Assembly: GCA_048939995.1 (NCBI GenBank) | Contig: JBHLOY010000005.1 | Span: 64,001-128,000 of the forward strand | DNA from: Promethearchaeota archaeon | GTDB lineage: Archaea; Asgardarchaeota; Lokiarchaeia; Sigyniarchaeales; SOKP01 | Reading direction: 5' to 3' | Length of the DNA stretch: 64,000 bases | Part shown: positions 456-8,075 of the stretch, in pieces | Numbering within the stretch: the first letter of the stretch is position 1 | Layout of the letters: each line of letters opens with the position of its first letter | The notes under the pieces: model-generated | Told to the model about the DNA's origin: nothing | The model's input: only the letters and a program-made list of their open reading frames with translations | The model's database searches: none | Translations under genes and position numbers: made by a program

Positions 456-1346
456 TTAATGACCTTTAAAATTCAAAGTAATATTTTTCAATAATTCTTT
501 ATATCTGGAGCGGAGAGTCACTTCTGTGACCCCTATTATTCGAGAAATGTCTTTTTGACTCACCTTAACGTTTCTTAATTTTGCTATTAAGTATAAAGAT
601 CCCGCACATAGACCTTTAGGATCTTTCCCTGATATAGATCTTCTTTTTATATAGTTTTGAAGCACTTGAACTGCCTCTTTTTCCACTTCGATTCCCAAAT
701 TCAGGTCTGCGCAATAGCGGGGTATTAAGGAGACTGGATCTATATGGGAAATCTTTAAATTTAATTCCCTTATAAGAATTTTGTAACATTTTTTAACAAT
801 ATTATCATTTATTGAAGCCTCATCTAATATCTCTTGAAGCGTAATTGGCACTCTCTCATCTTTGCAAGCATAATAAGCGCAAGCAGCAACCATTCCGTTA
901 ATAGAACGCCCCCTAAGCAACTGTCTTTTAAAAACCTCCTTATATAACCGAACAGCTGACTTCTTTACTCTTTCTGGAAAATTTAGATTTCCTCCAATTC
1001 TTTTTAGTTCTGTAATAGCCATGAGCATATTTCTTTTTTCCCATGATAAATGTGTATTCCATTTTGCTGCCCTTCTTAAGTCAGGATTCTTAATTTTTGT
1101 CCTGTCAATAACCGTACTTAAACCAATATCTGGCATTAAAATTGACATGGGTGACCCTGTTCTTTCCTTCTTATCTTTTTCATGTTTTGAATATGCCCGA
1201 ATTCCACTATGATTTATGTCAAGTCCTCTCTCTCCAACAACTAAACCACATTGCTTACATACAGTTTCTCCTCTTTCTTGGCTAATTATTGTTGCACCAC
1301 CACATTCTGGGCAAATATTAGACAGCGCATCTATTTCAACAACCAT
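456..1346 (-). CDS. tfb: Transcription initiation factor IIB (TFB)
   Basis: Zn ribbon CPECG..CKQCG, B-reader ERTGSP, cyclin repeats (LLRGRSI, GKDPKGLCAG, VTEVTLRSRYKEL). Confidence 0.95.
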   Translation of the reverse strand: MVVEIDALSNICPECGGATIISQERGETVCKQCGLVVGERGLDINHSGIRAYSKHEKDKKERTGSPMSILMPDIGLSTVIDRTKIKNPDLRRAAKWNTHLSWEKRNMLMAITELKRIGGNLNFPERVKKSAVRLYKEVFKRQLLRGRSINGMVAACAYYACKDERVPITLQEILDEASINDNIVKKCYKILIRELNLKISHIDPVSLIPRYCADLNLGIEVEKEAVQVLQNYIKRRSISGKDPKGLCAGSLYLIAKLRNVKVSQKDISRIIGVTEVTLRSRYKELLKNITLNFKGH

Positions 1347-1933
1347 ACTTTAATACCTCAACCTTATTTTTGATAAAAAATTTTTTTGTCGCTTTTTTCA
1401 TGCGAAAATTTTGAACACAATTAGTATGATTTTTTACACACACATATTTTTTTGTTATGATCAAATTAGCTCATTTTAGTATTTAAATATTATGGTCAGA
1501 AACTCACTATTTATAAATGATTTATAAACAAATTTTCCCTTTTTTTTTTTTACAACAAATTAAAATTTTGCTCAGGAGTATAAATTTATTAAAATTTTTT
1601 TTAATAAGGAGTTTGGTGTAAAGGGAGTTAATAAAGACACATAATATCCAGACATGATTTTACAAATAAATGTGGATCTTAAATTTCACCATATTTCAAT
1701 TTTTTCACACGAATTGAAGGGAAAAAAAAGAAATAATTATCACTTTTATTTGGCTTATTACGCCCTTAAATCAAAAATTCTTATTTACATAAAATTAAAT
1801 ATATGAAATACATTATCATCTTGATTTGATAACAAATCTATCCAAATATAAAGGTGATCCTTAAATCACTAAAGCGCCTTATAAATCTGATGACAAGGAA
1901 AAAGAACGGGAATTAGACAAGTCAGATAGAGAT

Positions 1934-2893
1934 ATGAACAAGGATGAACAAAAACAAAAAGATAATGAATTAGATGATATTAGAAGAACATTTAATGAAG
2001 AAGAAATTGAAAATCTTGATTTAGAGAGTGAATTAGGGAAAAAGTTGATAGAATTATATGAAGATCAAACAGAAAGACATGCTGTTTGGCGTGGTAACGT
2101 TACTGAGGCTTTTAAAAAGTGGTTAAAGGGAGAAAAAATATATAGTCGTGAAAAAGAACGCATCTCGTTATATGTAGAAGAAAAAACTAAAGATGAATGG
2201 CAAGAATTTATCAACAAGAATAAAAAGGACTTTCCAACCTTTTCCGAGCTAATTAGACAAGGAGTAAATACATTTATAGAAGATTCTAAACTAGGAGGGA
2301 ATCCATTGTCAAAATTGTATCAAAAAACTATTTCTAATATTTCTCACGCATTAAAGGAACCCCTTACCTCAATCAAAGGTTATTCACAATTTTTATTTGA
2401 AAATGAAACTTATAAAGAAAAATTAAGTGAAGATGTTCAAGAAAAACTTAAGAATATATTAGAACAAAGCAATATTCTTGAAAATAGAATAATAAGCTTC
2501 TTGGACAATATTAAAATCCAGAACCATGAGTATGATATCCTTTTAATCGAAGATGATTTAGCAACAATTCGATTAATTACAAGTTATTTTGATAGCAAAG
2601 GATATATGTGCAAAGGCGTCGTTAGTGGTTCAAAAGGATTAGAGGAATTAGGGAGAGCTCAACCAAAAGTAATTTTACTAGACATAATTCTACCCGACTT
2701 AAGTGGGTATGATATTTGTAAAACCATAAAATCAGATAAGGAGTTTAAAAAAATACCAACTTTCTTTTTAACTGCAATTTCTGGTTCTGAAGTCGAAAAA
2801 CATTTAAAAGAAACTAAAGCTGATGGATATATATTAAAGCCATTTAACTTTTCTGATTTTAGAGTAATTTTTGACATTTTGAATGATGCCTAG
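1934..2893 (+). CDS. Unknown N-domain + RHH + HisKA(DHp) + receiver domain protein, paralog 1
   Basis: RHH-like ERISLYVEEKTKDEW..FSELIRQGV; H-box SHALKEPLTSIKG; REC IEDD, LLD250, T280, KP302; no HATPase motifs. Confidence 0.85.
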   Translation: MNKDEQKQKDNELDDIRRTFNEEEIENLDLESELGKKLIELYEDQTERHAVWRGNVTEAFKKWLKGEKIYSREKERISLYVEEKTKDEWQEFINKNKKDFPTFSELIRQGVNTFIEDSKLGGNPLSKLYQKTISNISHALKEPLTSIKGYSQFLFENETYKEKLSEDVQEKLKNILEQSNILENRIISFLDNIKIQNHEYDILLIEDDLATIRLITSYFDSKGYMCKGVVSGSKGLEELGRAQPKVILLDIILPDLSGYDICKTIKSDKEFKKIPTFFLTAISGSEVEKHLKETKADGYILKPFNFSDFRVIFDILNDA

Positions 2894-3034
2894 TCATCCT
2901 TACATAAAGAGTAACTCTTTTATTTTTATATAAAAAATTTTTTATTTTTACAAAAATTAATTTTTATCTGGTAATCAATATTAGTTTTCAAATATTTTTT
3001 ACATACAGATATAAATTTATACATACTGAGATCT

Positions 3035-3988
3035 ATGGCTGAGCAAGAAATTCAAGACAGTAACCATGACGATAAGGATGAGCATAATGCTCCATTAATG
3101 GCTGATGAAGAAATTGAAAACCTTGATTTAAATAGCCAAAAAGTAAAAGGACTGATGAAAAAGTATGAAAAAGAAACTGATAAATATGCTGTCTGGCGTG
3201 GAAATGTTACTGAAGCTTTTAAGAGATGGTTAAAAGGAGAGAAGATTTATGATCGCGATAAAGAAAGAATTTCACTCTATGTATCTGAAGATACTAAAGA
3301 TGATTGGCAAGATTTTATAAACCAGAATAAAGAAACTTATAATACGATTTCGAAACTCATTCGGGATGCGGTTGATTATTTTATTCATGAAAAGTCTAGC
3401 ATTCTCGGTGATCGCTTTAATAAATTGGACACTGAAGCTTTAACAAATCTTTCTCATGCACTAAAAGAACCTTTAACTACAATAAAGGGTTTTTCCCAGT
3501 TATTACTTGAAAATTATCAAAACCAATTGGATGATAAAATATTAACAACTATTCAGAATATCTTTGATCAATCTCTTCTTCTTGAAAACAGGATTATTAA
3601 TATTCTTGATAATATAAAAATAGAGTCAACCCAGTATGATATTCTATTAATTGAAGATGATTTAGCCACAATTAGGCTACTCACAAGTTATTTTGAAAGT
3701 AAAGGATATACTTGTCAAGGAGTTGTAAGTGGCACAAAAGGAATCGAAGAATTAAGAAGTAATCTTCCTAAATTAATATTACTAGATATTATCCTCCCAG
3801 ATTATAGTGGTTATGAGATCTGCAAAATGATTAAATCAGACCCTAAATTAAAAAATATACCTGTATTTGTTTTAACTGCTATCCCTGGATCTGAAGTCGA
3901 AAAACATATGAAAGAAATTAAAGCTGATGGCATTATCCTAAAACCTTTCGATTTTTCTGATTTTGAAATTATTTTCAAATTATTATAA
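3035..3988 (+). CDS. Unknown N-domain + RHH + HisKA(DHp) + receiver domain protein, paralog 2
   Basis: Colinear with 1934-2893: AVWRGNVTEAFKRWL, ERISLYVSEDTKDDW..ISKLIRDAV, SHALKEPLTTIKG, IEDD..LLDIILPD..LTA..KPF. Confidence 0.85.
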   Translation: MAEQEIQDSNHDDKDEHNAPLMADEEIENLDLNSQKVKGLMKKYEKETDKYAVWRGNVTEAFKRWLKGEKIYDRDKERISLYVSEDTKDDWQDFINQNKETYNTISKLIRDAVDYFIHEKSSILGDRFNKLDTEALTNLSHALKEPLTTIKGFSQLLLENYQNQLDDKILTTIQNIFDQSLLLENRIINILDNIKIESTQYDILLIEDDLATIRLLTSYFESKGYTCQGVVSGTKGIEELRSNLPKLILLDIILPDYSGYEICKMIKSDPKLKNIPVFVLTAIPGSEVEKHMKEIKADGIILKPFDFSDFEIIFKLL

Positions 3989-4111
3989 AATTCCTCTATT
4001 AAAAAAATCAAAAATTAATGATCTTTTTAGCTTTAGTGTTATCCTAAAATAGAAGATTTCTTATATTATATCTACCTTATTTTACTAAGTAATTATACTT
4101 CTAATATGGAT

Positions 4112-4248
4112 GGGCTATTGGCGCAGTCAGGTAGCGCAAATATCTCATAAATTTTTTATGAGTTAGTAGAACCGGCTCTTAACCGGCAGGTCGGGGGTTC
4201 AAAATTTCATTAGGCTTTCCCTAATGATTGAAAATCCCCTATAGCCCG
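4112..4248 (+). tRNA. tRNA-Lys(CTT) with two non-canonical introns (about 4138-4169 at the D-stem/anticodon-stem junction; about 4204-4233 in the T-loop)
   Basis: Acceptor GGGCTAT/ATAGCCC+G, D-stem GCGC/GCGC, anticodon arm CCGG-CT CTT AA-CCGG, T-arm GGGGG TTCAA..AT CCCCT; both inserts fold as hairpins. Intron boundaries approximate. Confidence 0.85.
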
Positions 4249-4366
4249 CTTTTAATTATGTAAGGTCACACTCATCCTAAAGAAAATGAGATTTACTTTT
4301 GTATTATGTAATAGTCAGTTAGAAGTTAAATCAAAATGTTTTACTCTCTTTTTACCCTTATATGAG

Positions 4367-4467
4367 CGCAGACGGAGGGACTCGAACCCTCGAGCGCTTT
4401 CGCGCACCGGCTTGCTTGAATAAAGCTTTACTCAAGGCCGGCGTCTTACCAGCTAGGCTACGTCTGC
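4367..4467 (-). tRNA. tRNA-Ser(TGA) with canonical 37/38 intron (4413-4430)
   Basis: Reverse complement: acceptor GCAGACG/CGTCTGC, G73, long variable arm, CCGGC-CT TGA G[18 nt]A-GCCGG; BHB helix CUUG/CAAG. Confidence 0.9.
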
Positions 4468-4644
4468 GTATTAAAGATAATCTTTTACCTTATTTAGTAT
4501 TAACATATTTAGTATTAAAATAGATTATATTTAATATAATAAATCTTTTTTTATTCTTTTCTTTACAATGGTAAGGCTTTTACGTTATTTACGGAAAAAT
4601 ATAAATTTTACCCCATATTTAACTCTTATTGAGATGGTGTAAAA

Positions 4645-5127
4645 ATGAGTGCAGCTAAAGATTTTCGATATCTCATACCTCAACGAATTTTTGATGAGAT
4701 TACTCAAAAAGCAGCTGAAGAATATCCCTATATTATACATTTTTGGATATTTGCGGATAGAAAAGAAAATTTCGGGATTGTAAATAAATTCATAATTAAT
4801 ACAGATTTACGCAAGACTAAAGCTCATGTAAAACCTAGGAGTTGGATGCGCTATAAAAAATCAAAAATCTACAATATGCGTAAGTTCAAGCAGGAGCTCG
4901 GTTGTGACATCGTATGGCAAGGACACTCCCATCCCGGAGGCAACGAGAAGCTTCATGGGATTGACAAGAGGATCCTCAAATATTTATCCAATGGCGTCAT
5001 GATAGTAATAATTCCTCCCGTTCCAGATAAGCAACAAGAACCTCATTTGGTAGGATGGTACTATGATAAGAGATATACTAAAAAACCTATAATAGAAAAA
5101 ATGATTTTTGAGATAATCTCTGAATAG
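4645..5127 (+). CDS. JAB/MPN (Mov34) domain protein with divergent JAMM motif
   Basis: WQGHSHPGGNEKLHGID resembles HxH-x7-SxxD; N-terminal helix followed by YP as in JAB proteins. Confidence 0.7.
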   Translation: MSAAKDFRYLIPQRIFDEITQKAAEEYPYIIHFWIFADRKENFGIVNKFIINTDLRKTKAHVKPRSWMRYKKSKIYNMRKFKQELGCDIVWQGHSHPGGNEKLHGIDKRILKYLSNGVMIVIIPPVPDKQQEPHLVGWYYDKRYTKKPIIEKMIFEIISE

Positions 5128-7546: not shown

Positions 7547-7703
7547 TTATTAAAATAAGACCTTTGATTGTAATAGGTTTAATAAAATAATAAAATCCAA
7601 AAAAATATTTTGTTTTTTCCAATATTTAGTCCTAAGAAGATTTAAATTTAAATAATTTATGTTAGATTACACGATAAAAATAAATCTAAATTTGATAAGA
7701 GTT

Positions 7704-8075
7704 ATGGATGAGCAAAGATTTTTTGATTTAGTCGCAGCATTAAGAGAATATGAGGGAACTGAAGAGATTTTTTTATTAAATGCTAATGGTGAAATTCTTT
7801 TTATGTCTGAAAATTTTTCATTGACCAAAGAAGAGGCGAAAGAAATACTAGACGCTTGGAAAGAGAGTAAACCTGCTCTTACATTCCAAAATTTCAGATT
7901 CGCAATATTAAAGAACGATGATATTCAGCTAGCAGCGAAAAACATCACTCAAGGAAAAGGAAATATTGTTGGGTCTATAACAAAAGAAGGAGATTACCTT
8001 GTTGCTCATACAAGAGACGAGGGGATGATCTTACTAGAATGGTCAATATTCATTAACAAAGTTGCATGGAGTTAG
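7704..8075 (+). CDS. Profilin-like protein (Asgard type)
   Basis: Likely start MDEQ at 7704; IFLLNANGEILFMSENFSL..LTFQNFRFAILK..LAAKNITQGKGNIVG resembles Loki profilin strands (from recall). Confidence 0.7.
   Translation: MDEQRFFDLVAALREYEGTEEIFLLNANGEILFMSENFSLTKEEAKEILDAWKESKPALTFQNFRFAILKNDDIQLAAKNITQGKGNIVGSITKEGDYLVAHTRDEGMILLEWSIFINKVAWS

Follow-up and report, generated by a model that had tools for sequence, protein, structure and literature searches.

A response regulator architecture in which an Arc-type ribbon-helix-helix (RHH) domain is followed by a HisKA domain and a receiver (REC) was listed by Galperin et al. in 2018 (J Bacteriol, PMC5847659). Four such "Arc-type RHH-HisKA-REC" proteins of Lokiarchaeum sp. 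GC14_75 were mentioned in one sentence and left uncharacterised; the HisKA regulators lacking HATPase were said to "likely form dimers", and were not studied. The same three-domain chain is encoded by two adjacent genes, P0001 and P0002, in a 64,000-nt stretch of DNA from a Promethearchaeota archaeon (assembly GCA_048939995.1, contig JBHLOY010000005.1, positions 64,001 to 128,000), which is called the window below; P0001 is numbered from the ATG at window position 1934. Both sets of proteins come from Loki-type Asgard archaea, and architecture and taxon suggest that they belong to the same family. The Lokiarchaeum proteins were listed without function, structure, phylogeny, or gene context. 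Full-text literature searches found no later work on the RHH-HisKA-REC architecture, which is therefore catalogued but uncharacterised. The original prediction for this locus had proposed a new system, and this part of it had to be given up. As this combination of domains had been published before, the gain lies in context and hypotheses, not in a new kind of system. The new observations are the limits of the family, an old tandem duplication, synteny with a transcription factor B (TFB) gene in at least seven genera, adjacent PAS kinases in some genera, and a shared Trp-rich module.

Several described systems share parts of this architecture. Spo0B and ChpT contain a hairpin dimer of the DHp type (dimerisation and histidine phosphotransfer), which is unable to autophosphorylate and only exchanges phosphate with receivers. 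They keep a degenerate alpha/beta domain resembling the catalytic and ATP-binding (CA) domain, and have neither a fused receiver nor a DNA-binding domain. In P0001 and P0002, by contrast, the DHp is preceded by the RHH and followed directly by the receiver, and its His is not universal in the family. Since the CA-like domain is absent, the pair is not of the Spo0B/ChpT type on architecture. The hybrid histidine kinases (HisKA-HATPase_c-REC) have the same Pfam DHp and receiver families, whereas the pair lacks both the whole ATPase domain and a sensor domain, and has other residues at H+1 and H+4. The OmpR/PhoB, NarL, and archaeal REC-HTH (helix-turn-helix) regulators use receiver-controlled DNA binding, as proposed here for the pair. 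However, the domain order is the opposite of the bacterial one, with the DNA-binding part of the pair N-terminal and the receiver C-terminal, the fold is RHH and not (winged) HTH, and a permanent DHp dimeriser would lie between them. The closest folds to the N-terminal RHH are those of NikR, PutA, CopG, and ParD (Z 5.8-6.1, root-mean-square deviation (rmsd) 1.3-2.4 Å). Like the pair, NikR and PutA have an RHH that precedes an oligomerisation or regulatory part at the C-terminus; unlike these proteins, the pair uses a DHp and a receiver instead of a metal-binding, enzyme, or toxin-binding domain, and has an extra Trp-rich module before the ribbon. The archaeal REC-PAS/GAF-HisKA proteins (AF_1472; Galperin et al. 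2018) also have HisKA without ATPase in a response regulator, as a predicted dimerisation module, and likewise were not studied. In contrast to the window pair, their receiver is N-terminal and they lack a DNA-binding domain.

We lean towards the reading, which we consider moderately probable, that P0001 and P0002 are DNA-binding response regulators, in which a kinase-derived and catalytically disabled DHp serves as dimeriser and receiver-docking scaffold, Asp250 is phosphorylated by soluble PAS kinases, and the promoter region shared with a TFB paralog is acted upon. The two proteins share 65% sequence identity across 296 aa (E 1e-138). HisKA was matched in P0001 (39.9 bits) and in P0002 (34.6 bits), both above the Pfam gathering cut-off of 26.9 bits, and Response_reg was matched at residues 202-310 of P0001 and 203-309 of P0002 (E about 1e-18); the HisKA match of P0001 covers residues 132-191 and that of P0002 residues 134-196. 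Pfam gave no HATPase_c match in either protein, and no significant match in the first 130 residues of either. NCBIfam gave partial receiver and DHp matches only, to hybrid kinases (HrmK and ArcB best) and to OmpR/PhoB-type regulators. The AlphaFold model of P0001 (52 homologs; mean predicted local distance difference test (pLDDT) 85) has DHp helices at 130-156 and 166-191, a low-confidence or disordered linker at 194-198, and the first receiver strand from residue 202. Because the gap between DHp and receiver is only about 10 residues and receiver strand 1 is already reached at 202, there is no space for a CA/ATPase domain. The paired kinase-less RHH-DHp-receiver genes are thus a confirmed observation, and the original prediction of two adjacent paralogs of about 318 aa, exactly at these open reading frames (ORFs), with HisKA and receiver and no HATPase, was borne out.

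The N-terminal region (aa 28-122) was folded alone on a 40-sequence alignment (pLDDT 87) and used in an all-against-all structural search. Nearly all of the top 50 matches to model residues 45-95, which are protein residues 72-122, were RHH proteins (Z 4-6.1, rmsd 1.2-4.1 Å, with one weak match at 6.1 Å, over 38-54 residues). They include NikR (Z 6.1, rmsd 1.8 Å over 46 residues), the RHH of PutA bound to operator DNA (Z 5.9, rmsd 1.3 Å over 44 residues), CopA, ParD, TraM, Arc, and omega; for NikR, PutA, CopA, ParD, Arc, and omega the rmsd ranges from 1.3 to 3.3 Å. The Z-scores are modest (below 8), as expected for a domain of only about 45 residues. The Foldseek search with the N-terminal model gave no match at E <= 0.001; the ParD antitoxins align at rmsd 1.5-3.0 Å. 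The strand K74-E-R76-I-S78-L-Y80-V81 alternates, with K, R, S, and Y outward and I, L, and V inward. Conservation was compared in a close set (the 121 closest homologs, none below 64% identity) and a divergent set (32 representatives of 50%-identity clusters, found with the N-terminal 139 residues). The DNA-facing residues K74, R76, S78, and Y80 are invariant among the closest homologs; KERISLY, the helix-B N-cap residue S104, and R108 are invariant or nearly so, and are among the best-conserved parts of the protein. At the level of the modelled fold, residues 72-122 are established as an RHH domain, in agreement with the RHH-like segment originally placed at about 74-116, and we infer that this domain binds DNA.

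A very unlikely alternative is that the pair is not a transcription factor at all, and that the RHH-like segment and the Trp-rich module in front of it make protein-protein contacts in a receiver-controlled adaptor of some other machine. The profile support for the RHH is weak: RHH_1 was matched by four of the 40 family members (best E 6e-4), RHH_3, RepB, and DUF6290 by two each, and P0001 itself has RepB-RCR_reg as its sole RHH-related Pfam match (E 0.15). A PDB sequence-profile search with the N-terminal alignment found no RHH and only chance-level matches, such as ribosomal protein S1. The Trp-rich module (YE.ETGK.AIWRG.(I/V)TE.FKKWLKGEKIY, aa ~28-71) points in the same direction, since it also occurs on proteins that are not DNA-binding. 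Ras/Arf/Roc-type GTPases have it on their C-terminal side, once with a receiver immediately after it. It also accompanies a Ras fragment and a gelsolin repeat in another protein, and begins a MacB-type ABC ATPase encoded in the same genome. Tandem copies occur in proteins without other recognisable domains. Against this adaptor stand the fold matches, which are almost exclusively DNA-binding RHH proteins, and the outward K, R, S, and Y with the helix-B N-cap Ser, which form the best-conserved part of the N-terminal region. As the Trp-rich module is very basic and lies immediately before the DNA-reading strand, it may add contacts to DNA or to a partner.

The module appears to be mobile in this lineage. 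Units of about 25-45 aa with the core ETGK.A.W.G..T..F.KW were seen in L003:517-1695 (-), P0170, P0187, P0196, P0201, P0206, and P0209. No family or fold for it was found by Pfam (40 sequences), the structural search, or the ESM Atlas. An RNase H1/Cauli_VI hybrid-binding domain was considered, on the basis of a weak Pfam match in P0197 (E 0.0028) and a similar residue pattern. This assignment found no support, as the Pfam model matched nothing in the window's own genome at E <= 10 and was absent from the families found for the 40 module sequences.

The receiver carries the full set of phospho-acceptor residues. In the 52-sequence family alignment, D207, D250, and K302 are invariant and T280 nearly so; E206, D207, D250, T280, and K302 are invariant within both clades of the paralogs. 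The modelled receiver of P0001 superposes on RR468, PhoB, and RpaA with rmsd of 1.3-1.9 Å. The complete receiver expected from D250, T280, and K302 is thereby upheld.

The DHp domain resembles that of PAS kinases except at the catalytic positions. Both P0001 and P0002 have the H-box SHALKEP. Their DHp domains are closest to those of two PAS kinases from the same genome that read SHELKTPL(I/V)SI(K/S)G, and the H-boxes are near-identical except at H+1 and H+4, where the same-genome kinases have Glu and Thr, respectively. H+1 is Ala in 110 of the 121 close homologs and Asp in the other 11, while 15 of the 32 divergent representatives have Asp or Glu there. At H+4, both paralog clades have Glu. 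The roles of the H+1 acid in kinase activity and of the H+4 Thr in phosphatase activity are established for HisKA and were restated elsewhere (bioRxiv 10.64898/2026.02.27.708494). Given the likeness to the PAS kinases, the domain reads as a kinase DHp in which exactly the kinase and phosphatase determinants were replaced, and its descent from a SHELKTP-type PAS kinase is inferred. The residue losses would fit a DHp that neither autophosphorylates nor dephosphorylates. In this respect the alignment agrees with the original prediction, which had noted SHALKEP in both proteins and the loss of the H+1 acid and the H+4 Thr/Asn.

The role of His138 itself is less clear-cut. None of the 121 close homologs lacks it, it is invariant in each of the two paralog clades, and the H-box ISHALKEPLTSIKGYSQ (16 residues) is the longest invariant run among the close homologs. 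However, this invariance carries little weight, since a third of the alignment columns do not vary within the close set. In the divergent set, His138 is kept in 22 of the 32 representatives, and the other ten have F, Y, V, L, R, K, or N. These representatives keep LKxPLTxIKG and the receiver residues D207, D250, and K302, which fits a mainly structural DHp. Phosphotransfer through His138 is thus possible and not obligatory, because the residue is replaced in ten of the 32. The His-to-Asp control in one chain that was originally put forward is accordingly weakened as an obligatory mechanism; the receiver Asp and Lys are still conserved. Lack of conservation of His138 among homologs had been named beforehand as a refuting result, and it is partly borne out.

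These data bear on an internal phosphorelay, which we regard as possible and distinctly less probable than the scaffold reading. A working His138, as in Spo0B or ChpT, would exchange phosphate with Asp250 of the same dimer, or pass it onward to CheY-like proteins, so that the protein would be relay station and transcription factor in one. The conservation of His138 in the close set and both clades, the length of the conserved H-box, and three stand-alone CheY-like proteins in the genome are in its favour, and loss of the H+1 and H+4 residues would end kinase and phosphatase chemistry while sparing reversible His-Asp transfer (bioRxiv 10.64898/2026.02.27.708494). The replacement of His in ten divergent proteins that retain the receiver is against it, as is the limited weight of the close-set invariance. 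There is also no Hpt domain or hybrid kinase in the genome to suggest multi-step relays. Moreover, we know of no precedent for a relay protein that binds DNA.

In the favoured reading, the phosphate would come from separate kinases. The window's own genome encodes seven complete kinases, four of them without an adjacent regulator, and eight receiver-containing ORFs, one of which is broken by an in-frame TGA. One REC protein has a C-terminal part that, as read from the sequence alone, resembles an Lrp/AsnC-type helix-turn-helix. A split kinase was considered and rejected, as there is no small stand-alone HATPase_c gene and no Hpt domain in this genome. In genus g14, the pair belongs to a two-component cluster, and one g14 locus of two (L034) has a PAS-HisKA-HATPase kinase between the regulator genes. 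The PAS kinases beside the pair at this locus are L034:7488-9494 and L034:2665-5289; PAS kinases are also near the pair in genera g15 and g19. The Lokiarchaeum HisKA-REC protein KKK46010 was tabled directly beside the large PAS kinase KKK46009 (PMC10343646), and the consecutive accessions suggest that the two are gene neighbours. As a separate observation, a 320-aa response regulator with a C-terminal domain of about 170 aa adjoins a 907-aa kinase elsewhere in the window's genome (G000:C17:327051-328010, minus strand).

A closer association with the kinases is quite unlikely. The DHp would form a heterodimer with a PAS kinase DHp, and the kinase ATPase would phosphorylate His138 in trans, or the regulator would titrate the kinase in the manner of RetS and GacS. 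The very close likeness of the H-box and helix 1 to the two same-genome PAS kinases, the kinase between the two g14 genes, and the position of two of the four clade-distinguishing residues in the DHp might suggest such a kinase-bound adaptor. However, most genomes have no kinase adjacent to the pair, and an RHH has to pair with another RHH chain, something a kinase partner does not have to offer. To our knowledge, DHp heterodimers are rare among known systems.

The distribution of the family was surveyed with the N-terminal profile. It was found in 62 of 68 genomes of the window's own taxonomic family (nine genera), and in none of 232 genomes from 30 other families of the phylum at E <= 1e-8. 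With a looser search, it was found in all four genomes of the sister family in the same order, and in one of 11 genomes of a third family, which includes single-contig genomes. A survey for the architecture across Asgard genomes had been proposed; it places the architecture in the window's own family and the sister family, and not Asgard-wide. Public records name such proteins "response regulator" from metagenome-assembled genomes of Promethearchaeota, Lokiarchaeota, Hodarchaeota, and Thorarchaeota, and one JGI name adds "Arc/MetJ-type RHH". The RHH-DHp-REC family has 1-10 copies per genome, and the tandem pair was found in nearly every genome of the genus. In a maximum-likelihood tree (quick search, midpoint root), the TFB-proximal and TFB-distal copies form two groups (SH-like approximate likelihood ratio test (SH-aLRT) 89 and 87), each across at least seven genera. 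The tandem duplication is therefore old, with both copies retained side by side, and a partnership of the proximal and distal proteins is plausible because they stay adjacent across genera. Only four positions separate the two clades consistently, and two of these (150 and 189) are in the DHp.

The pair is also linked to a divergent TFB gene. The order TFB (divergent), proximal copy, distal copy holds at 10 of the 11 loci from the genus and at 11 of the 15 from other genera, while the outer flanks vary, and the adjacency is kept in at least seven genera. The adjacent TFB is 65-95% identical across loci, a range that narrows to 75-95% when a single locus is set aside. The genome has seven TFB paralogs, on contigs C5, C11 (four genes), C17, and C19 of G000, and every one of them contains two cyclin repeats. 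Of the 20 loci examined, 18 carry the TATA-like palindrome TATTTAAAT(A/G)TT in the intergenic region, and in the other two it is one base off. It is flanked by repeats of a T-run followed by ACAC(A) (window 1380-1560), which are enriched compared with shuffled controls and are candidate operators. No known RNA family was found in this region by Rfam. A GTGA-N8-TCAC palindrome in front of the proximal gene was rejected as an operator: it is made up of a GGTGA ribosome-binding site and the in-frame codons ATC ACx behind it, and the palindrome is not conserved. The outgroup and third-copy loci have no conserved partner; their neighbours include glycosidases, oxidoreductases, and glycosyltransferases.

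These features can be combined into a tentative mechanism. With Ala in place of the kinase Glu at H+1, and Glu in place of the phosphatase Thr at H+4, the DHp would be a constitutive dimer scaffold; it would pair two RHH half-domains into one DNA-reading ribbon, and offer a surface on which the fused receiver docks. Asp250 would be phosphorylated in trans by soluble PAS histidine kinases. The phosphorylation might shift the packing of the receiver on the DHp, or might drive receiver-receiver association between dimers, and the resulting change would determine how tightly DNA is bound, or how cooperatively repeated operator sites are filled. The likeliest targets would be the promoter region shared with the adjacent TFB paralog and the promoters of the pair itself. 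The paralogs may act as homodimers, heterodimers, or both.

Several results weigh against this mechanism. P0001 was modelled as a monomer (predicted template modelling score (pTM) 0.44), in which the domain arrangement is uncertain and the RHH strand is unpaired. The invariant H-box is longer than dimerisation alone would call for, which hints at a conserved partner or at phosphotransfer. There is no kinase adjacent to the pair in the window's own genome. A genome-wide scan for the T-run and ACACA element gave 42 sites, of which 15 are intergenic, and these sites do not outline a regulon. The synteny of TFB and pair is limited to one taxonomic family, so that part of it may be simple inheritance.

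The coordinates of the features are given in Table 1.

Table 1. Features of the RHH-DHp-REC gene pair and its TFB neighbour, in window coordinates.
Feature	Position	Strand	Details and basis
P0001, TFB-proximal RHH-DHp-REC response regulator	1934..2893	+	319 aa from ATG; ORF, Pfam, model, tree
Trp-rich basic module of P0001 (aa 28-71)	2015..2146	+	predicted helix, beta-hairpin, helix
RHH domain of P0001 (aa 72-122)	2147..2299	+	strand KERISLYV, helices 83-95 and 103-119; structural matches
DHp/HisKA four-helix-bundle element of P0001 (aa 130-192)	2321..2509	+	His138 in SHALKEPLTSIKGYSQ; Pfam, model, alignment
Receiver of P0001 (aa 200-319)	2531..2890	+	E206, D207, D250, T280, Y299, K302; Pfam, alignment, superposition
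P0002, TFB-distal RHH-DHp-REC response regulator	3035..3988	+	317 aa; ORF, Pfam, tree
HisKA/DHp of P0002 (aa 134-196)	3434..3622	+	Pfam
Receiver of P0002 (aa 203-309)	3641..3961	+	Pfam
TFB paralog, divergent to the pair	456..1346	-	zinc ribbon and two TFIIB cyclin repeats; conserved adjacency
Shared TFB/regulator intergenic region	1347..1933	.	TATA-like palindrome TATTTAAATATT at 1480-1491; candidate operators
T-run and ACAC(A) repeats	1381-1392, 1409-1420, 1430-1444, about 1549-1559		candidate operators in the intergenic region
GGTGA Shine-Dalgarno-like element	1853..1867	+	7-nt spacer, in-frame ATC (1865); probable non-AUG start

The translation of P0001 probably starts at a non-AUG codon, the ATC at 1865, which would give a protein of 342 aa. 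A GGTGA element followed by exactly 7 nt and an in-frame ATC, ATA, or ATT is present in the window and in loci L016, L019-L025, L033, L040, and L046. The proximal frame is open from the non-AUG codon to the first canonical start, which lies 15-54 codons further on. This canonical start is not conserved, as ACG ATG in L020 corresponds to ACT AAG in L021. In the distal gene, after the same GGTGT element, L021 has ATG at the place of ATT in L020 and L023.

Other features were observed downstream of the pair. A 160-aa protein (4645-5127, plus strand) with a JAMM-like HSHPGG-x-H-x2-D motif and no Pfam match follows the pair where the flank is kept, and has 75-89% identity across genera. Two tRNA genes lie between the pair and this gene, at 4107-4260 (plus strand) and 4367-4467 (minus strand). 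The latter, matched by Rfam, holds an intron, as it is 101 nt long. The former is tRNA-like with two inserts, and was missed by ARAGORN and Rfam; ARAGORN found no tRNA in 3900-4700. A 138-aa protein without a Pfam match (7659-8075, plus strand) is syntenic before the gene of the proteasome alpha subunit.

Few response regulators of archaea bind DNA, and no study has dealt with one from the Asgard group. The present family is nearly universal in one Loki family, with 2-10 copies per genome there, and very strongly conserved, and appears to show a kinase DHp recycled as the dimeriser of a transcription factor. Since the pair keeps its place beside one of the seven TFB paralogs, signals from the environment might govern which basal transcription factor is used, and the shared Trp-rich module may tie the regulators to the Asgard small GTPases. 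A further-reaching and unlikely version is that the paralogs are an obligate heteromeric RHH-DHp-REC regulator that reads PAS-kinase signals, uses exchange between His138 and Asp250 as a timing or memory device, directly switches the neighbouring TFB paralog, and is linked by the Trp-rich module, through Ras/Arf-like GTPases, to the Asgard small-GTPase network. If this were true, Loki-type Asgard archaea would use two-component signalling to re-programme their machinery of basal transcription.

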